From Microcoleus sp. (GTDB lineage: Bacteria; Cyanobacteriota; Cyanobacteriia; Cyanobacteriales; Microcoleaceae), in the NCBI GenBank assembly GCA_042408215.1, contig JAYFMW010000030.1, forward strand, positions 448,001 to 512,000: a stretch of DNA of 64,000 nucleotides, read 5' to 3'. Below the pieces are notes generated by a model, which had not been told where the DNA came from, made no database searches, and saw nothing but the letters and a program-made list of their open reading frames with translations. Position numbers and translations under genes: made by a program. Of this stretch, positions 9,810 to 19,933 are shown piece after piece (position 1 is the first letter of the stretch; each line of letters begins with the position of its first letter).

Positions 9810-10454
9810 TTGGCACTTGCACCGCCCCAGCGCGAAAGCGTTCTAGCTTGGCTCTCAGACCGCGTTCCTGCTGCTCGCATCACACATATCCTCGGAGTCG
9901 AACAGGTAGCAGGTGACTTGGCTCGCCATTACGGCCTCGATGAAGCTAAAGCCCGATCGGCCGGATTGTTGCACGATTTGGCAAAATACTTCAAACCTCA
10001 ATTGCTGCTACAAATAGCCGCAGCCGAAGGTTTAGAGTTAGACTCAGTGTTGGAAGCACACCCGCACCTGCTACACGCAGACGCGAGCGCGATCGTCGCC
10101 AGATCCGAATTCGGGGTGGTCGATCGAGAAATTTTGGAAGCGATCGCCAATCACACCCTCGGAAGACCAAACATGAGTCAACTCAGTTGTACCGTATTTA
10201 TAGCAGACACTATAGAGCCGAGCCGTGGCAACACAGCCGAACTAGAAGCACTGCGGCAGGCGAGCGTGCAAAATCTTTATGCGGCAGTTTGGCAAACCTG
10301 TGATTATTCTCTGAAATTCTTGCTAGAAACTCGGTGCTACATCCACCCGCGCAGCGTACTCACCCGCAATTGGGCGCTGCAAATGGCTCGATCGAAAGAA
10401 ACAGGGAATTCGACGAGGGAATCGATCGCCACCTGCAATCAAACTGGTTTGTAG
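9810..10454 (+). CDS. yqeK: HD-domain bis(5-nucleosyl)-tetraphosphatase
   Basis: RITHILGV, GLLHDLAK, LLHADAS, IANHTLG, IADTIEP; synteny with rsfS. Confidence 0.85.
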   Translation: MALAPPQRESVLAWLSDRVPAARITHILGVEQVAGDLARHYGLDEAKARSAGLLHDLAKYFKPQLLLQIAAAEGLELDSVLEAHPHLLHADASAIVARSEFGVVDREILEAIANHTLGRPNMSQLSCTVFIADTIEPSRGNTAELEALRQASVQNLYAAVWQTCDYSLKFLLETRCYIHPRSVLTRNWALQMARSKETGNSTRESIATCNQTGL

Positions 10455-10512
10455 TCAGGACTTTAGTCCTCAGTGGCCGGACTGCCGCCGACGGAGGACT
10501 TTTCGTTTTCAC

Positions 10513-11961
10513 CGAAAAACGAGCCCGGCGTGCCCCTGGCTTTTAGACATGGGGAGGAAGTCGGTAGCGGTTTCAACCGCCTTCTATATTTTTTTTGGTA
10601 TTGGTTGTTTTGTAGTCATATTTGCATCTTCAATCAAGAATACTATGCTAATATAAACCAAGGAGGAAAACAGAATGTATGGATGCCAGCAAAATCTAAT
10701 TAGTCCAGACAAAGACTTAAAAGCAGTCTTAGAATTCTTGTGTAGTGAAGCCTCAAAGTTAATTAATTGTGGAACTTATTATGCCAGACAACTATTCTTC
10801 AAAACTGGAAGGATACCGAGTAGAGCCAAGCTACATAAAGTTTTAGGAACGGACAATCGAAACATTCATTATAAGGCTTTCTATTCAGATACCGCACAGC
10901 AGATACTGACTAGCATTGCTGAATCTTTCCAATCCTATTTGGGCTTGCTAGCTGGAATCAAAGAAGGGACAGTGACGCAACATCCAAGACTTCCTGGATA
11001 CAGACAAGGCGGATTAGCACTTGTAACTTTTACAGGTAGATCGGTCAAATTAAAAGATGGAATGTTGCGATTTCCTTTAGGGAAGCAAGTTAAAGCTTGG
11101 TTTGGCATAGATGCGTTCTATCTGACGATGCCATCTAACTTAGAATATGCTTCTATTCGAGAGTACAGAATTTTACCCAGAAACGGATGTTTTTATCTAG
11201 AATTGGTTGACCAAAAAGAAGCTGTTCAATCCGATGTCAACGTTGATTCTGTATTGATGATCGACCACGGGATGGACAACTGGATAACTTGTGTCAGCAA
11301 TATTGGAACTTCATTCATCGTAGACGGAAGGCATCTCAAGTCCATCAACCAAGGCTACAACAAACGAGTGGCAACCTTGAAGTCGGTCAAAAACAATGGA
11401 TTCTGGTCGAAAAGACTGGAACGGCTGACCGAAAGCAGAAATAGAACAATGCGGGATGCAGTTAATAAAGCTGCTCGTAAGGTCGTCAATCATTGTGTAT
11501 CATCCAAGATTGGTACAGTCATATTTGGATGGAACAAGAATCAGAAAGATTCAATAAATCTGGGTACAAAGACCAATCAAAAATTTGTTCAGATTCCCAC
11601 GGGCAGGTTAAAAGATAGAATTGCTCAACTCTGCGAACAGTCCGGAATCAAATTCGTCGAAACCGAAGAATCATATACTTCAAAAACTTCTTTTCTCGAT
11701 GCCGATCCACTGCCTAAAATCGGCGAAAAACCCGAGGGGTGGAAAGCTTCGGGAACGAGAATTAAACGTGGATTATATCGGACGGGGAAGGGGTGGCTAA
11801 TTAATGCAGATTGCAATGGTTGTGCAAATATTGGCCGTAAAGTAGCAACAATACTTGGACTCGATCTAAGTGGAGTTGGTAGAGGTGACTTGTCAGCACC
11901 TGTAAGACTTAAATTGTGGAATACATGAATCCCCACGCCTTTAGGCATGGGGAGATGTCAA
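10513..11961 (+). mobile_element. Non-autonomous IS200/IS605-family element (tnpB only)
   Basis: Left-end hairpin CCCCTGGCTTTTAGACATGGGG after TCAC; right end GAATCCCCACGCCTTTAGGCATGGGGAGATGTCAA; no TSD; no tnpA. Confidence 0.85.
10675..11928 (+). CDS. tnpB: RNA-guided endonuclease TnpB (zinc-finger-less cyanobacterial type)
   Basis: RuvC-I MIDHG, IFGWN at the usual RuvC-II position, ETEESYTSK, RIKRGLY, RuvC-III INADCNG. Confidence 0.93.
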   Translation: MYGCQQNLISPDKDLKAVLEFLCSEASKLINCGTYYARQLFFKTGRIPSRAKLHKVLGTDNRNIHYKAFYSDTAQQILTSIAESFQSYLGLLAGIKEGTVTQHPRLPGYRQGGLALVTFTGRSVKLKDGMLRFPLGKQVKAWFGIDAFYLTMPSNLEYASIREYRILPRNGCFYLELVDQKEAVQSDVNVDSVLMIDHGMDNWITCVSNIGTSFIVDGRHLKSINQGYNKRVATLKSVKNNGFWSKRLERLTESRNRTMRDAVNKAARKVVNHCVSSKIGTVIFGWNKNQKDSINLGTKTNQKFVQIPTGRLKDRIAQLCEQSGIKFVETEESYTSKTSFLDADPLPKIGEKPEGWKASGTRIKRGLYRTGKGWLINADCNGCANIGRKVATILGLDLSGVGRGDLSAPVRLKLWNT

Positions 11962-11981
11962 TACCAACTTAAAACTCAGGA
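11835..11981 (+). ncRNA. Predicted TnpB omega-RNA (3-prime scaffold plus guide TACCAACTTAAAACTCAGGA); 5-prime end uncertain
   Basis: Overlaps the tnpB 3-prime end and right end; homologous to protein-free copies at 38827 and 55655. Confidence 0.7.
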
Positions 11982-12049
11982 CTCTTCGTCCTGATGACCA
12001 ACTTTAAGACAGTTGTATCAATTGTATCAATTAGGAACTCAAACAATTA

Positions 12050-12472
12050 ATGTTAGATCAAACCCAACTCCAATACACCACCAACTCGCCTTCAACTGCC
12101 GGCACATCCCCGGATCAAACCCGCCCCCTAGCTTTGACAATTGCTCAAGCTGCCGAAGACCGCAAAGGCGATAATATCCTAATGCTGCGGGTATCAGAAG
12201 TATGCTACTTAGCAGACTACTTTGTGATTGTGACCGGATTTTCCAACGTGCAGGTACGAGCCATCTCCCAAGCGATCGCAGACCAAGTAGAAGAGGAATG
12301 GCAACGCTTACCACTACGCACAGAAGGGCAATCAGATGCAAGTTGGGTGGTGATGGACTATGGCGATGCGATCGTCCACATCTTGAAACCTCAAGAACGC
12401 GAATTCTACAATCTAGAAGCGTTCTGGGGGCACGCCGAACGCATTAACTTTTCCACCGAGCCCAGAGGATAG
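12050..12472 (+). CDS. rsfS: Ribosome silencing factor (iojap)
   Basis: AAEDRKG, ADYFVIVTGFSNVQVRAI, WVVMDYGDAIVHI, FYNLEAFW. Confidence 0.95.
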   Translation: MLDQTQLQYTTNSPSTAGTSPDQTRPLALTIAQAAEDRKGDNILMLRVSEVCYLADYFVIVTGFSNVQVRAISQAIADQVEEEWQRLPLRTEGQSDASWVVMDYGDAIVHILKPQEREFYNLEAFWGHAERINFSTEPRG

Positions 12473-12476
12473 CTAT

Positions 12477-12977
12477 GTGAAAGACGCTTCTGTTTCTATT
12501 TGTCCTGTTCCCCAAGAACAGCGACCGGTCAATGAATACCAAGAACTTAAAGAATCCTGGTTTTTTAGTTGGGGAACTCTCCATTGGCCCCAGTATCTGG
12601 CAAAACTTGCTTGGGTATGGGGTTGGAGTTGCCTGGTATCCGGGCCGATAGCTGCGGCTAGCTTTTCTCCTGTCAAATATCCAGCTCAGTTTGTCCTGTG
12701 CGCGATAGCTGGTGCCGGTTTTATTCTAGGATTAGCTTTGCTACGGCTGTACTTGGGTTGGTTCTACGTGCGATCGCGCCTATCCAATCCCACAGTCGTC
12801 TACGAAGAATCCGGCTGGTATGACGGTCAATCCTGGACTAAAACTCCCGAAGTCTTACTTCAAGACCAGTTGATTGTCAACTATCAACTAGAACCCATTC
12901 TGGGGCGTCTGCGGCAGACATTTTATGGTTTGGCGGTATTTCTGGTTGCCGGGGGAGTAATTTGGAATTGTTTGTAA
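12477..12977 (+). CDS. CGLD27/Ycf36 family membrane protein (DUF1230)
   Basis: CPVPQEQRPVNEY, RLYLGWFYV, YEESGWYDGQ. Confidence 0.9.
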   Translation: MKDASVSICPVPQEQRPVNEYQELKESWFFSWGTLHWPQYLAKLAWVWGWSCLVSGPIAAASFSPVKYPAQFVLCAIAGAGFILGLALLRLYLGWFYVRSRLSNPTVVYEESGWYDGQSWTKTPEVLLQDQLIVNYQLEPILGRLRQTFYGLAVFLVAGGVIWNCL

Positions 12978-13102
12978 TCAGGAATGGAAACAGGGGAGTT
13001 ATGAGTTATGAGTTTTGGCAGCAAGAATCGACTTTGTAACTGGCAACTGGCAACTCATCAATTACAACTCACAACTCATCACTTCCTCAGCTCAAATCTA
13101 CA

Positions 13103-14083
13103 ATGAAAAATCTAAAATCTAAAATTGATATGACAAGGGGAAAACGAACCCAAGCTCCAGAACTGGAAGTCAGATTGCTGCGCGAAGGTATTGTGGAATC
13201 TAAGCACCGCGTCCAGGCCGCTGTCTGTGACAATCGTGGCCGCGTTCTGTCCGTTGCTGGTAACTCGGAAACGGCCGCCTTTGTCCGTTCTTCACTCAAG
13301 CCTTTTCAAGCTTTGGCTGTGACTGCAAGCGGCACCTTAGAACGCTACGAACTCACCGATCGAGATTTAGCGATTATTTGCAGTTCTCATCAAGGTACGA
13401 TCGAGCAATCGCGACAAGTATTTAACGTCCTGTGGCGCTGCGACATTGACCCCTCTAAACTTCAATGCCCGATTCCAGAAGGCAAAAAAAGTTCCCTGCA
13501 ATACAACTGTTCCGGCAAACACGCCGGAATGCTCGCTGTCTGTCAGCAACTGCACTGGCCGCTGGAAAGCTATTTGCGCCGCAAACACCCCGTCCAGCAG
13601 CTCATTTTGGGCAAGGTGGCTGACTTACTGGCAATGCCAGCCGAAGAGTTTATCAGCGCTCGCGACGACTGCGGCGCTCCTACCTATTTATTGCAGTTGG
13701 GGCAAATGGCCTCTCTCTACGCTAAGTTGGCCAGTGGCGACAATGTGGATATGGAGCGGATTGTCCGCGCTATGACTCATCACCCGATGATGGTGGCTGG
13801 TGAGGGCAAATTTGACACGGAACTGATGCAATTGACCCAAGGGGAGTTGGTGAGCAAGTCCGGTGCCGAAGGCGTGCAGTGCATTGGCCGGGTTGGCGAA
13901 GGCATGGGTTTGGCAATTAAGGTCACTGATGGGGCAAAGCGGGCTCAATATGCTGTGGCGATTCATTTGCTCAAGCAGTTGGGGTGGATCACTGCGGCGA
14001 TCGCCGAAACTCTCTCGGAAACTTACCTCACTCTCAGCGAGTTCAAGCGCTTGGAGGTAGTCGGCGAAGTGTCGATGCTCTAG
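13103..14083 (+). CDS. L-asparaginase II family protein (likely start 13130)
   Basis: RSSLKPFQA, CSSHQG, NCSGKHAGML, DDCGAP, SKSGAEG. Confidence 0.9.
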   Translation: MKNLKSKIDMTRGKRTQAPELEVRLLREGIVESKHRVQAAVCDNRGRVLSVAGNSETAAFVRSSLKPFQALAVTASGTLERYELTDRDLAIICSSHQGTIEQSRQVFNVLWRCDIDPSKLQCPIPEGKKSSLQYNCSGKHAGMLAVCQQLHWPLESYLRRKHPVQQLILGKVADLLAMPAEEFISARDDCGAPTYLLQLGQMASLYAKLASGDNVDMERIVRAMTHHPMMVAGEGKFDTELMQLTQGELVSKSGAEGVQCIGRVGEGMGLAIKVTDGAKRAQYAVAIHLLKQLGWITAAIAETLSETYLTLSEFKRLEVVGEVSML

Positions 14084-14200
14084 TACAACCCTGATTGTCA
14101 GCCGATTTCAGCAACCCCTCCCACAATCTCAAAAGTTTTTTTGATTTAGGGGTTGCTATTTTCAGAAAGATGTGTTTATATTAGAGAAGAGATAAAGCGA

Positions 14201-14277
<77 letters not shown>

Positions 14278-14288
14278 AATTCAAGCGA

Positions 14289-14322
14289 ACCCTGTAATCG
14301 TTAAGGTTTCAGGGTTTTGTTT
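14289..14322 (+). terminator. Hairpin with T-tract after the first tRNA
   Basis: AACCCTG...CAGGGTTTTGTTTT. Confidence 0.6.
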
Positions 14323-14351
14323 TGGGAAACCACTAGAGAAAGACAAAGCGA

Positions 14352-14428
<77 letters not shown>

Positions 14429-14439
14429 AATTCGATCGG

Positions 14440-14477
14440 ACAAGCCTCGACAACTTTTGGTTGTGGAGGCTTGTTTT
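14440..14477 (+). terminator. Hairpin with T-tract after the second tRNA
   Basis: ACAAGCCTC...GAGGCTTGTTTT. Confidence 0.65.
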
Positions 14478-14527
14478 ATGACATTGTTTGATTGCATCTT
14501 TTAAAGTTCCCGACAAGTTGCCAATTG

Positions 14528-14719
14528 CTAAATCGGCTGGCCTTCGAGCCAATCAAAAATTAGGTTTAGCTGTTCTAGTGTAACCAACCCGTACTGCCAA
14601 AGAACCAGAGGCAGTTGGCTGGCATCTTGTTCCCCGTGTCGGAGAGCAACTGCGATCGCCGAATTCGAGATCGCCAACTCTCCCTGCAAATAATCGATTA
14701 GTTGAGCCTTTGCCATCAC
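14528..14719 (-). CDS. DUF2949 family small protein
   Basis: LPLVLWQYGLVTLEQLNLIFDWLE motif. Confidence 0.85.
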   Translation of the reverse strand: MMAKAQLIDYLQGELAISNSAIAVALRHGEQDASQLPLVLWQYGLVTLEQLNLIFDWLEGQPI

Positions 14720-14964
14720 CTTAACCGCCAGTTTTATACTCTTTTGTAAAGCTCTGTAGCTCCTTGGGTTGAGTCAGAAGTTTAATATTCCTAACTTTAG
14801 GTGAAAAATGGGGAATCCGCTGTGATGGAAAACCTACACAAGTTGTGATAATACTCATAGAAAAAAGCGATCACCATCACAAGATACCGGATGGTCATCG
14901 TTTCGTCATTCGGGGGAAGGCATTTATGCTGAATTTTCCCCATCTATTTATTGATTGAAAATTC

Positions 14965-15435
14965 CTACAATCCTAGCTGAATCTGAACTCCCGCTTCTGT
15001 GCCACTGTCGCTTGGTTTGGGAGGTAAAGGATTTCCTTGACGCTGGGCGTCCGAAGGAGTGGTGATAAATTCAAATTCGCGATCGATTTTGAGGCGAAAT
15101 CCGTCACGCAAGCGGTTATCTCTTCTAACAGAATTACCCGATGTTTCTAATTGACCAATAAAGTTTTGATAATCGGAGTCTACGGTTCTGTCCTCAACAG
15201 TTCTGAGGGAATCCCCAGATAAAGTTGTTTCCGAACTTTGAGCCACTGGTTGCAGTCTTGGTTGGGCTAGAACAGCAGGCATCAAACCGATTAAAATGGA
15301 ACTCAGTCCCAGAGCAGTGCCAAGAGTAGCAATAACTGCGTTCACGATCAATCCCTCCGCTAGTTGCATCCTCATATTCTGATTGTACCAGGAAAGCAGT
15401 TGCGATCTATCAAAAGTATTGGCTAGTTGAGACAT
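14965..15435 (-). CDS. Hypothetical secreted protein (true start probably downstream)
   Basis: Signal-peptide-like segment ending PAVLAQ. Confidence 0.55.
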   Translation of the reverse strand: MSQLANTFDRSQLLSWYNQNMRMQLAEGLIVNAVIATLGTALGLSSILIGLMPAVLAQPRLQPVAQSSETTLSGDSLRTVEDRTVDSDYQNFIGQLETSGNSVRRDNRLRDGFRLKIDREFEFITTPSDAQRQGNPLPPKPSDSGTEAGVQIQLGL

Positions 15436-15477
15436 TCATGTCCATTTCAATTCACCGAAGAGCACCATTCTCGCTTA

Positions 15478-15720
15478 ACAGGCAGGATGCCTGTTTCACA
15501 AAGATTGAATTTTATTGTGTGTGGGGTGGGCAAGTCAGGAACAGGCTTTCCGGCCTGTTCCACAACACATCAAGTTTCTTGTGGGGTGGGCCCTCCTAGC
15601 CCGCCAGTCAAAGGCTGATTGACAATGGTGCAAGCATCTCATTTGAAACTGAGATTAGCACCCGCGAGCTTTTGGGCCTGTTCCACAAAAAAAATATTTC
15701 TGATGCGGTGGAGCGTGCTA
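15478..15720. repeat. Cluster of REP-like palindromes (AACAGGC...GCCTGTTCCACA; GTGGGGTGGGC...GCCCGCC)
   Basis: Several imperfect hairpin units in tandem. Confidence 0.6.
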
Positions 15721-15940
15721 AGCTGCAACAATGGGAAAACTGCTAGGAAAGCTGGTGCAGCGAAGCTATCCCAGAGGGCATCGCCTCTGTTCCGAAAGCT
15801 CTCGATCGCGCTAAGATAACTGTGGCTGAATTTGAAAAATTTAATAGCAAGTGACCAAGTCCGAGTTTTTAACAGCAAATTGCCACAAAAAACTATCTCA
15901 ACTTCAAAATCTGCTGCATCTGTAGGGATACGGCATTGCC

Positions 15941-16148
15941 CATTGGTGTCAACTTAAGCCTGAAAGCCTTGAGAAATCTCGTTTTTAGCTGAGTCTAGAT
16001 CCCCCTAAATCCCCCTTAAGAAGGGGAGTAGGGGGTGACTTTGATCGGACTCTTATCCCCCCCTTCTTAAGGGGGGCTAGGGGGGATCTAGATTTAATGG
16101 TCAAACAGCAATCTGTGACTGGGTTTGAGCTGGTTGTTGACACCAATG
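15941..16148. mobile_element. MITE with TIR CATTGGTGTCAAC and 9-bp TSD GGCATTGCC
   Basis: TSD at 15932-15940 and 16149-16157; inserted in a GTAGGG REP-like hairpin; related inverted copy at about 36987-37205. Confidence 0.88.
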
Positions 16149-16193
16149 GGCATTGCCGTCTCCGTTGTGGCTTAGTAATAGTTATGCTCGATC

Positions 16194-19104
16194 ATGCCAA
16201 TTAAATATCTGACCAACCAGATGTTAAAAATGTCGGGAAAAGTACCAATTCGCATCGTCCTGGTTGTGCCTTTCGCCCTCCAGACTTTCGCCGCTGTAGG
16301 GCTGACGGGGTGGCTGTCGCTGCGGAACGGGCGCATAGCAGTTAATGATGTTGCTGCACAACTGCGGGCAGAAGTCACATCGCGTATCCAGCAACATATT
16401 AATAGTTATATTGAAACGCCACACCAAGTCAATCAGCTAAATGTCGATGCCATCCGTCTCGGCATTTTGAAGGTGCAGGATTCCGCTAGTTTGCGGCGCT
16501 ACTTTGCTCAACAAATTAAAACATTTAATAAAATTAGCTACATTCAATTCGGTTCGGAACAAAAAGGTTTTATTGGAGTTGAACGCCTTGATGACGGTAA
16601 ATTACAACCAGAGGTTTCTGGGAAATCTACTGGCTATAACTTTCAGACTTACGCAGCGTCGGAGTTGGGGGAACCAACCAAGCTATCACAAATTACTCCC
16701 AACTATGACCCCCGCATCCGCCCCTGGTACACAGCACCGGTGCAAGCAGGTAAACCGACGTGGAGCAAGATTTATACTTATTTAGACTTACCAAAACTGG
16801 CGATTACGGCGGCTGCACCGGTTTATGACGATCGCAATAAACTAATTGGAGTGGTGGGTTGTGACCTGCTACTTTCCCAAATAAATCAATTTTTGGACAG
16901 TCTAAAAATTGGGAAGTCGGGACAGACTTTTATTGTAGAAAGGTCGGGACAATTGGTGGCCAATTCTACTCCAGAACCGCCATTTATTATTAGTAACGGT
17001 GTGGCAAAACGGATTATGGCAACGAGCAGCAATAATGCTTTGATTCGATCGACTGCTCGCTATCTGACAAAACGCTTCGGGGATTTGAGCAAGATTGATG
17101 GCACTTATCAGCTAGATTTTACGATCGACGGGGAACGGCAATTTCTGCAAGTAACGCCCCTGTCTGACGGGAGGGGCCTGGACTGGCTGATTGTGGTGGC
17201 GGTTCCTGAAGCCGATTTTATGGAAAGAATTCACAGCAACACTCGCTACACTGTGTTGCTGTGTTTCGGTGCTTTGGTGGTGGCGATCGGAATTGGCTGT
17301 TTGACTTCGAGGTGGATTGTGGTGCCGATTCAGCGCCTGAGCAAGGCTGCGGAGGCTTTGTCGCGGGGAGAATGGGACTCGACGGCGCTATATCCGCAGT
17401 TGATGGCGTCTGTAGAGCGGGGGGATGAGGTGGGTGTTCTGGCCCGCTCTTTTAATCGGATGGCTTGTCAGTTGGAAGAGTCGTTTACTACTCTCGAAGA
17501 TCGGGTAGAATCGGCGATCGCTGACAAAAATCAATTAATTAGCTCTCTGAAAAACTCGCAGCAAAAACTCGCTCTCCACCTTCATCAAACTCCTTTGGGG
17601 GCGATTGAATGGAATCTAAATTTTGAAGTAGCGGACTGGAATCTTTCAGCGGAAAGAATTTTTGGATACAACCGTTTGGAAGCTGTGGGACGCCACGGAG
17701 TAGATCTAATAGTTCCTGAAAGTGCTAAGGAGTATGTCAGGAAACTCTCGATAAATTTGCTAACTAATCAAGGAGGAATTAGTAGCATTAACGAGAACGT
17801 CAGAAAAGATGGCAAAATTATTCTTTGTGAGTGGTACAATACGACTTTGGTCGATGCTAATGGTTGTATAATCGGAGTGGCATCCCTGGTTCAAGATGTG
17901 ACTGATTTTCACATTGCTATGGAGCAGTTGCGGGCTAGCGAGGAGCGGTTTCGCCAGTTAGCAGAAAATATTCATGAGGTATTTTGGATTAGAGAACCCC
18001 ATCACAAACAGATAGTTTATGTGAGTCCTGCTTGTGATAAAATATGGAATCGGAGCAGTCAGATTTTGTACTCAGAACCGGAATCTTTTTGGGATGCGAT
18101 TCACCCGGAGGATCGCGATCGCGTCAAGGCTGCTTTTGAGAAACAGGTGCGGGGCGATTATGATGAGGAGTATCGAGTAGTGCGATCCCCTACGGGGGCT
18201 ACGCCAACGGACGGCTCGATTTGTTGGGTGCGCGATCGGGCATTTCCGGTACGCAGCGAAACAGGAGAAATTTACCGCATCGTCGGTATTGCTGAAGACA
18301 TTACCCAGCGCAAATTAGCAGAAGAATTCCAAAAAGTCGCTCAAACCGCTCAAGCTGCAAACCAAGCAAAAAGCGCATTTTTAGCCAATATGAGCCACGA
18401 ATTGCGAACTCCCCTCAACGCGATTATCGGTTACAGCGATCTGCTCAAAGAGGATGCTGAGGATTTAGGCTGCGAAGATTTTATCCCCGATTTGCTGAAA
18501 ATTCAAACAGCAGGAAAACACTTGCTATCTTTAATTAGTGACATCCTCGATATTTCTAAAATAGAAGCGGGGCGGATGGAACTTTATTTGGAAACTTTTA
18601 ACCCTGCTCATTTAATTGATGACGTAGTTTCGACTGTCGAATCCCTGGTGCAGAAAAATTCTAATAAGTTTGAAGTTGATTGTGCTAGCGACTTGGGATT
18701 GATGAATGCTGATATTACCAAAACTCGGCAAATATTACTCAACCTGCTGAGCAATGCAGCCAAATTTACGGAAGGTGGCACTATTAAAATCAGCGTTGAA
18801 AGAGTTACAAATGAAAGCTCAAAGCTGCAAGAAACCAGAAGAGTGTTCCGAATGGATAATTTTCCGTGTATTTGATACAGGTATTGGGATTCCCCCCGAA
18901 CAAATGCAGCATTTATTTCAAGCTTTCATGCAGGGCGATGCCTCAACTACGCGCAAGTATGGCGGCACGGGTTTGGGATTAACCATTAGCCGTCACTTTT
19001 GCTTGATGATGGGTGGCGATATGGAAGTCGAAAGTCAGTTAGGTTTCGGTTCTATTTTTACTGTGCGCTTGCCGGCGCGCGTTGAATTAAAGAGAGAAAA
19101 CTAG
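16194..19104 (+). pseudogene. Cache-HAMP-PAS-PAS histidine kinase, frameshifted inside the ATPase domain
   Basis: ORF 16194-18875 has YDPRIRPWY, HAMP, 2 PAS, SHELRTPLN and the N box; the G1/F/G2 boxes (DTGIG, GGTGLGL) lie in frame 18754-19104. Confidence 0.85.
18188..18208. repeat. 21-nt SDR5-like insertion in a HIP1-like site, in frame
   Basis: GCGATC|CCCTACGGGGGCTACGCCAAC|GG; removal restores the PAS motif VRSDGSI. Confidence 0.7.
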
Positions 19105-19204
19105 GGAGTGTTTTTAAACCCGGAGATCCCCCCCAGCCCCCCTTAATAAGGGGGGAGCAAGAGCATTCTTTCGTCGCCCTTATTAAGGGGGATTTAGGGG
19201 GATA
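19103..19204. repeat. Partial MITE with the CCCCCTT..AAGGGGG core
   Basis: Similar to the left part of 7701-7863. Confidence 0.6.
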
Positions 19205-19261
19205 TGGCTCTGATTGGAAAGACAAGAAAAGATGCCCTCAATTCCTCACTACCAACTTATT

Positions 19262-19933
19262 TTAATTGGGAATTTCCCGTTTTTGTCGCCCCAAAAGTTG
19301 AGCTGTTAAGACACCGCCGGCAAAGCCAAAGAAATGTGCTTGCCAAGAAACTCCGGGCTGGGATGGCAAAACTCCCCAAATGAAACTGCCGTAGAAGAAA
19401 CCGACAATTAAAGACATTAAAATTGAAGTAAAGCTACGTTCAAATAAGCCGCGCAGTAGCAAAAAGCCGAAGTAGCCAAAGATTAATCCGCTGGCACCAA
19501 TGTGCACGGAATGGGGCGCGCCTGTCAGCCAAACTCCCAATCCGCTAACTAGGATTGTGACGGCACTCACGACAAAAAAGTCGCTAATTTTTCGCAGCAT
19601 AATCAACCAACCAAATGTTAAAAAAGGAAGGGTATTACTGGCTAAGTGGGCAAAACTGCCGTGCAGAAAAGGCATCCACAGGATGCCTTGAAGTCCGTCG
19701 AGGCTGCGGGGGTGCACTCCGTAGGAATTCAGCCTGCCTCGGAAGAGGAATACATCGACAATCTCTATCATCCAGAGTAGGGCGACGAAGCCGCCGAGAA
19801 TGGCGGCGTGGCTTTGCAATTCGCTGGTGATAGTTTTGGTTTCTGGGTTGCTCATGGTTTGTGAGGGCGGTATAACAGAAGGAAAGGGAAATGGAAGTCG
19901 GAAGAAGGGAAATGGAAGATGCAACAATAGCAA
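19262..19933 (-). CDS. Rhomboid intramembrane serine protease (likely start about 19855)
   Basis: HGSFAHLASN, HIGASG, SWQAHFFG. Confidence 0.92.
   Translation of the reverse strand: MLLLHLPFPFFRLPFPFPSVIPPSQTMSNPETKTITSELQSHAAILGGFVALLWMIEIVDVFLFRGRLNSYGVHPRSLDGLQGILWMPFLHGSFAHLASNTLPFLTFGWLIMLRKISDFFVVSAVTILVSGLGVWLTGAPHSVHIGASGLIFGYFGFLLLRGLFERSFTSILMSLIVGFFYGSFIWGVLPSQPGVSWQAHFFGFAGGVLTAQLLGRQKREIPN

Follow-up and report, generated by a model that had tools for sequence, protein, structure and literature searches.

The IS200/IS605 family of insertion sequences is accepted to include members that carry tnpB as their only gene. The guide of a TnpB corresponds to the DNA 3' of the right end of its element, and its transposon-adjacent motif (TAM) to the motif at which the left end is inserted. 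Here we describe an element of this kind in a 64,000-nucleotide stretch of a Microcoleus sp. genome (G000:C30:448001-512000, given as genome:contig:positions), referred to below as the window. The element (10513-11961, + strand, 1449 bp) lies between an HD-domain gene (9810-10454) and rsfS (12050-12472), which bracket its 417-aa open reading frame (ORF). It is an unremarkable TnpB insertion sequence, present as a single copy, that interrupts a degraded unit of a short palindromic repeat. The original prediction for this locus had proposed that a guide templated by such a repeat could direct the TnpB ribonucleoprotein (RNP) to numerous copies of the repeat for binding or cleavage, with self-targeting or repeat-directed homing as the outcome. 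A search of the 7.36-Mb genome (30 contigs) indicates that no other site shares enough sequence with the guide for self-cutting to be likely.

The genome of the window holds no second copy of the element above 71% identity, so the ends were set with copies from other genomes of the genus. The element was searched in 41 genomes and matched in 35 of them, yielding about a dozen near-full-length copies (79-95% identity) that all lose similarity to the window element at the same two points. Across this and the related genomes, 13 distinct right ends all stop at ...GGGGAG(A/T)TGTCAA, equivalent to window position 11961, and continue into 13 different, unrelated flanks, while 25 distinct left ends all begin with C(G/A)AAAAACGAG, equivalent to 10513. 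In the window itself, 10512 is the last base of the left flank ...GGAGGACTTTTCGTTTTCAC; the element runs from CGAAAAACGAG to ...GGGGAGATGTCAA, after which the right flank TACCAACTTAAAACTCAGGA begins at 11962. The four bases 5' of the 25 left ends are T (24/25), C (18/25) or G (6/25), A (24/25) and C (24/25), and the sequence-derived target motif of the element family is T[C/G]AC. Position -5 is less constant (T 15, C 5, A 4, G 1), and the six closest left ends (L056, L058, L059, L081, L082 and the window) all read TTCAC.

The rsfS region was fetched as 30 loci of 41 matching genomes, and both flanking genes were present in 28 of the 30. The element is absent from the HD-rsfS site in all 28 compared loci of other genomes, and in three of them (L014, L015 and L016, from three related genomes) the spacer is homologous to the window flanks and empty, reading ...TTTTCAC^TAC(A)AACTTAAAAC, where the caret marks the insertion point. 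The L015 allele (G008), whose flanks are 97% identical to those of the window, reads ...GAGGACTCTTCGTTTTCAC^TACAAACTTAAAAC..., or in longer form ...CCGACAGAGGACTCTTCGTTTTCAC^TACAAACTTAAAACAGAGGACTCTGAGTCCTGAC...; L014 (G005) is the same apart from two N, and L016 (G020) reads ...GTCATCAC^TACAAACTTACTAT.... Two hallmarks of the IS200/IS605 family are evident. Nothing is duplicated at the insertion point (...TCAC^TAC... in the empty alleles), and both ends carry subterminal imperfect hairpins without terminal inverted repeats. The left hairpin, CCCCTGGCTTTTAGACATGGGG (10533-10554, + strand), lies 20 nt from the left junction in a DNA fold and is kept in the 25 left ends. The right hairpin, CCCCACGCCTTTAGGCATGGGG (11931-11952, + strand), is followed 9 nt further by the element end, with TCAA at 11958-11961, and its stem shows a G-C to C-G swap (5 versus 8 of 13 copies). 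Together, the empty alleles and the shared ends place the element at 10513-11961, inserted 3' of TTCAC, with the guide template starting at 11962. The empty alleles had been named in the original prediction as the check that could refute its junction, and they put the joint exactly where it was predicted; the predicted TAM, TCAC, and the predicted guide start also agree with the 25 left ends and with the template position. The predicted guide template is thus TACCAACTTAAAACTCAGGA (11962-11981, + strand), for an assumed length of 20 nt.

The sequence interrupted by the element belongs to a palindromic repeat family. The 20-mer GTAGTCAGGACTTTAGTCCT has 10 exact copies in the genome, and the strict hairpin pattern AGGAC-N3-6-GTCCT occurs at 55 loci, the flanks of which give as consensus a palindrome of ~36 nt, GTTTGTAGT-N-AGGACTTTAGTCCT-N-ACTACAAAC. 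Fourteen neighbour distances between strict loci measure 21-89 bp, and the units are therefore often clustered. The window contains only two strict units, at 10457 and 11978, and these flank the element. Unit 1 is GTAGTCAGGACTTTAGTCCT (10451-10470; hairpin core AGGACTTTAGTCCT at 10457-10470), one of the 55 strict loci, and unit 3 is the hairpin TCAGGACTCTTCGTCCTGA (11976-11994), which overlaps the distal part of the guide template. The empty allele reveals a third, degenerate unit in between, AGGAC-TCTTC-GTTTT-C-AC^TACAAAC, in which the right stem has decayed from GTCCT to GTTTT, turning CCTCAC into TTTTCAC. The left half of this unit 2 (GGAGGACTTTTCGTTTTCAC) occupies 10493-10512 (+ strand), its last bases, TTCAC (10508-10512), being the TAM and insertion target, and the right arm of the unit is split between ...CAC and TACAAAC. 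The L015 and L016 alleles read ...TCAC^TACAAAC, which fits the repeat arm consensus GTCCT-C-AC^TACAAAC. Empty alleles and repeat consensus thus confirm the proposed insertion into a degenerate arm of the GTAGTCAGGACTTTAGTCCT palindrome family.

As the target lies in a repeat arm, the first 7-10 bases of the guide-templating flank are arm sequence (...CAC^TAC[A/C]AAC(TTA)). Guide positions 1-7 equal the right half of unit 2, and only these seven (ten in a small sub-variant) come from the arm consensus GTCCT-N-AC^TACAAAC. Position 4 is C in the window and A in both the repeat consensus and all three empty alleles. None of the other 12 right-end flanks starts with TAC(A/C)AAC (0/12), so landing in the repeat was incidental to its TCAC motif, and the suggestion of repeat-directed homing is not borne out.

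To quantify potential self-targets, the contiguous guide match (seed) was counted at every TCAC and TGAC site on both strands of the genome. Only four of the 38,890 TCAC sites match at least seven guide bases: two have a seed of 7, none of 8 or 9, two of 10, and none exceeds 10. The 58,882 TGAC sites include two with a seed of 7, one of 8, one of 9, and none of 10 or more. Over 16 nt, the minimum number of mismatches at TCAC sites is three, reached at two non-repeat sites. Sites within two mismatches of guide bases 1-12 number 1054, which is about the random expectation by our own estimate and is uninformative. There are 22 repeat-derived TCACTACAAAC sites, 18 of them with CTCAC, and all of them differ from the guide at position 4 and lose the match after 7-10 bases. 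A one-mismatch form, TCACTACAAACTTA, occurs at two places. Both 10-nt sites carry CTCAC, and C at -5 is found in only 5/25 natural left ends. The proposed multicopy target is accordingly true of the repeat but not of the match to TAM and guide: TCACTACCAAC has only four copies in 7.36 Mb (both strands), with ~3.5 expected. With a maximum of 10 nt at two sites, the count argues against an RNP that binds or cuts many repeat copies. For the ISDge10 TnpB, PMC13507860 describes a 10-nt guide that engages DNA without double-strand breaks, and cleavage that is restored with 20 nt. By analogy, the two sites with TAM and 10 matching bases would be bound weakly at most, and cutting would not be expected. 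Among the papers listed in literature searches, none dealt with a TnpB whose guide stems from a repeat of its host.

The explanation that we favour joins a TnpB-only insertion, a seed derived from a repeat arm and cutting restricted to the excised joint, and as a whole we consider it highly probable. A non-autonomous, single-copy IS200/IS605 element (IS1341-like, with tnpB and without tnpA) inserted 3' of a TTCAC between the HD-domain gene and rsfS, this target having arisen within the worn middle unit of a three-repeat cluster. The 3' end of tnpB and the right end would, as in other TnpB elements, be transcribed into an omega-RNA with the guide TACCAACTTAAAAC..., and the RNP would be expected to cut only the exact joint of TTCAC and guide formed on excision. 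Such cutting would favour retention of the element. The sites at 19246 and C17:288393 diverge from the guide after base 10 and hence would at most be bound weakly.

The putative omega-RNA scaffold, comprising the tnpB 3' end and the right end (11762-11961, + strand, with a provisional 5' limit), comes from a consensus fold of 13 copies. The last 200 nt of these copies form 54 pairs, 10 of them compensatory, mostly owing to one distant copy and in a region that is also coding. Expression of the omega-RNA and the length of its guide are assumed by analogy with other TnpBs. One environmental DNA contig, X5, reads across the occupied allele and shows six differences. The empty joint was not found in DNA contigs X3 and X5, but contigs drop rare variants, and this does not count as evidence that it is absent.

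The tnpB ORF (10675-11928, + strand) encodes 417 aa and matches Pfam OrfB_IS605 (E 1.6e-15). A library-wide protein search gave 4231 representatives at E <=0.001, of which 49 were aligned with the window TnpB (29-50% identity; 50 sequences in total). Four residues are invariant in this alignment: D197 (IDHG), E332 (ETEESYTSK), D379 (NADxNG) and G285. G285 occupies the canonical RuvC-II Glu position, and E332 is at the alternative Glu position, which PMC10711439 puts six residues ahead of the first Cys position of the zinc finger. PMC10711439 describes an 'Ealt' with D-Phi-G group of TnpBs with Glu at the alternative position, to which the window TnpB corresponds, and a CxxC...CxxC zinc finger that is present in many, not all, TnpBs (PMC10711439). 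D197, E332 and D379 would therefore supply the RuvC D-E-D triad, as predicted from the alignment. None of the 50 clade members has two or more CxxC motifs in the last 130 aa, and all four zinc-finger Cys are absent from 50/50. This alternative-Glu, zinc-finger-less clade is abundant in the genus, and it might differ in activity from assayed TnpBs. An AlphaFold model of the window protein (pLDDT 92.9) retrieved AsCas12f (E 1e-18), ISFba1 TnpB, ISDra2 TnpB and Fanzor2 with Foldseek (E 1e-18 to 4e-10), the highest TM score given being 0.72, normalised to the target, for ISDra2 TnpB (8H1J). The single TnpB sequence had no match in a search of the PDB, while a profile search matched Cas12f-type chains by sequence. 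The protein is intact and conserved, and it is a putative nuclease.

Several observations weigh against the favoured explanation. The TNB domain (PF07282, Cas12f1-like) is matched weakly, at 24.2 bits versus a cut-off of 26.3; the protein has neither the canonical RuvC-II Glu nor any of the four zinc-finger Cys; and it is 417 aa long versus 422 aa in 92%-identical relatives, five codons shorter. We know of no member of this exact clade that has been assayed, and the length thresholds for binding and cutting were taken from other TnpBs. An Rfam scan for an omega-RNA family gave no match at E <=1. No RNA from the window locus was seen: the RNA-library contigs X14 and X16 are ~95%-identical kin with other flanks (64-73 differences from the window element) and are silent on this locus. 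Finally, the sole related element with tnpA in this genome, on contig C20, has TGAC upstream and a disrupted tnpB.

An alternative is that the window copy is an inactive fossil without a functional RNP, which would make the question of targeting moot. A single copy with no tnpA, a TnpB with no zinc finger and a shortened C-terminus, and the negative Rfam scan and RNA-library contigs would all suit a fossil. Against this, the 417-aa ORF is uninterrupted, the three putative catalytic residues are invariant across 50 homologues, pN/pS is 0.10-0.30 between the window tnpB and eight kin copies, the model is confidently Cas12f/TnpB-like and both end hairpins are intact. We therefore regard a fossil as unlikely.

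The match at 19246 was part of the original prediction, and the sequence is present as described: TCAC (19246-19249) is followed by TACCAACTTA (19250-19259, + strand), a TAM-like motif (CTCAC in context) with a 10-nt guide match. It lies just 3' of the stop of a rhomboid gene (19262-19933, minus strand), beyond an ORF with a HATPase domain that ends at 19104. Whether it is a coincidence unrelated to the repeat can be judged from its recurrence. The 14-mer TCACTACCAACTTA has two copies in the genome (both strands), at window position 19246 and at C17:288393, where Markov models of order 3-6 predict 0.05-0.07, and two copies exceed chance for unique DNA. Genome-wide, 21% of TCAC 14-mer sites have another copy and 10% have two or more, and in so repeat-rich a genome such recurrence is unremarkable for repeat-derived DNA. 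The C17:288393 site directly follows a bona fide hairpin (AGGACGGTCGTCCT-CAC-TACCAACTTA), several repeat arms continue ...ACTACAAACTTA, the two sites share the 18-mer TCCTCACTACCAACTTAT, and the 19246 context fits the repeat arm GTCCTCACTACAAAC at 13/15 bases in a by-eye reading against the consensus. Sequence comparison thus explains the excess by the repeat and identifies the two sites as relics or sub-variants of it. Coincidence would accord with the lack of an intact AGGAC...GTCCT hairpin at 19225-19260 and with a match that was sought after the fact, but in view of the observed excess and the shared repeat context it is quite unlikely. The 19246 sequence also occurs in G008, a genome with an empty HD-rsfS site, and so owes nothing to the element. 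The idea that the element might have brought along 10 nt of flanking DNA from an earlier position at 19249 was dropped, since the empty HD-rsfS alleles already hold the TAC(A)AACTTAAAAC sequence.

Two further multicopy sequences were noted. Positions 19105-19238, between the HATPase-domain ORF and the rhomboid gene, hold a repeat with a long palindrome (...CCCCCCTTAATAAGGGGGG...) that resembles a miniature inverted-repeat transposable element, and its copies of 80-90% identity number in the dozens in related genomes, with 55 matches apiece in G005 and G008. A sequence that begins TACCAATTTAAT(G/A)GGTCGTTGCA(C/T)ATAT(C/T)TCG has at least 15 copies on many contigs of the window genome (for example C30:658705 and C6:754592) and probably marks one end of a different mobile element.

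A further possibility is that the RNP binds the two to four sites with TAM and 10 matching bases without cutting them and exerts some side effect there, for example as a roadblock or through weak regulation. The engagement without breaks described for the 10-nt guide of ISDge10 TnpB (PMC13507860) is in line with this, as are the exact sites at 19246 and C17:288393 and the two one-mismatch TCACTACAAACTTA sites. The 19246 site, though, is 3' of both convergent neighbours and not in a promoter position, which makes a regulatory effect unlikely, and its sequence predates the insertion. Moreover, a full-length guide with 10 distal mismatches differs from a 10-nt guide, and the TAM is the weaker CTCAC. 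Binding with such a side effect is consequently very unlikely, and the fuller version, in which a nuclease-competent TnpB with a repeat-derived seed binds all four relic sites without cutting, is highly improbable. If true, it would amount to a naturally occurring example of the partial-match engagement seen with engineered 10-nt guides, and it could start a regulatory domestication like that of TldR. That a repeat-derived guide makes the RNP recognise, cut or home into many copies, and so target its own genome, is barely credible: the target is indeed a repeat unit, with 22 TCACTACAAAC sites (18 with CTCAC) and two exact sites where 0.05-0.07 are expected, but no site exceeds 10 contiguous bases or has fewer than three mismatches in 16, the consensus arms all mismatch position 4, the two 10-nt sites have the less common C at -5, none of the 12 other copies lies in the repeat, and a self-cutting chromosome would be counter-selected, whereas the occupied allele persists in environmental contigs.

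The mobility of the element was considered in relation to the transposases of the genome. No ORF for a Y1 (HUH) TnpA was found between 10513 and 11961 among the window ORFs and Pfam matches. The genome has 20 Y1 transposase matches, 19 of them over the Pfam cut-off, and the best (C20:691681-692034) is in the C20 element; the left ends of the C20 and window elements share 85% identity. Trans-mobilisation by a Y1 transposase of the genome is plausible. Kin with tnpA appear to exist in the genus, judging from gaps of ~450 nt between left end and tnpB, and the C20 element is the one in this genome. Many matches to the window element cover only its 75-90-nt left end (e.g. G019:C1:203578-203666 and G013:C13:12243-12319); some belong to tnpA+tnpB kin with the ~450-nt gap (G006:C62, G022:C434 and G008:C335), and others may be solo ends or miniature derivatives. 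Between subfamilies, the left end (80-96%) is better conserved than tnpB (64-71%).

Other arrangements were observed among related genomes. At L077 (G007:C3, minus strand, around locus position 1488), a right end, ...GGGGAGTATCAA, directly abuts a left end, CGAAGAACGAG, with no spacer in between; the arrangement represents a tandem insertion or else a fixed structure like a circle junction, and the right-end TCAA mimics the TCAC target at 3/4 bases. At L022 (G009:C196), the HD-rsfS intergenic region measures 486 nt versus 111-163 nt elsewhere and contains ...CCCCTTTTCTTGATTACAGGGGAGTGTCAA, which resembles an IS200/IS605 right end; a small related element may have inserted independently close to this position. 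In the window, the element has the same orientation as the HD-domain gene and rsfS and ends 88 nt upstream of the rsfS start, and its presence may cut rsfS off from a promoter further upstream or drive the gene by read-through.

The locus provides a worked example in which empty alleles fix a TnpB junction to the base. It illustrates that a TAM can arise from the decay of a host repeat, here GTCCT to GTTTT giving TTCAC, and that a repeat-derived seed of 7-10 nt is not expected to create cleavable self-targets. For annotation, it yields a TAM logo (T[C/G]AC) together with end hairpins and a guide position for a large clade of alternative-Glu, zinc-finger-less TnpBs. No new biology is implied; the anatomy given in the original prediction was right, and its inference of self-targeting was not.

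In comparison with known systems, the host repeat resembles REP (repetitive extragenic palindromic) sequences and REPINs in being a short palindrome of ~36 nt with 55 strict loci that are often paired or clustered 21-89 bp apart. Unlike REP/REPIN systems with a RAYT (REP-associated tyrosine transposase), it is found within 2.5 kb at only 1/18 Y1 places examined, and no RAYT-type Y1 is associated with it. The predicted protein shares its overall fold with the TnpB nucleases of ISDra2 (8H1J/8EXA) and ISFba1 (8IAZ) and with Cas12f, and its RuvC-I and RuvC-III Asp are in the expected motifs; unlike these proteins as compared, it has its putative catalytic Glu at E332, Gly at the canonical site and none of the zinc-finger Cys. 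The element resembles TnpB-only IS200/IS605 elements of the IS1341 type, with a geometry like that of ISHp608 and ISDra2: it lacks terminal inverted repeats, has subterminal hairpins 20 nt inside the left end and 9 nt inside the right, closes with TCAA, sits 3' of a fixed motif of 4-5 nt with no target duplication, and is filled by tnpB. It differs in its motif (T[C/G]AC, TTCAC in the closest kin, versus TTAC or TTGAT) and in having no tnpA.

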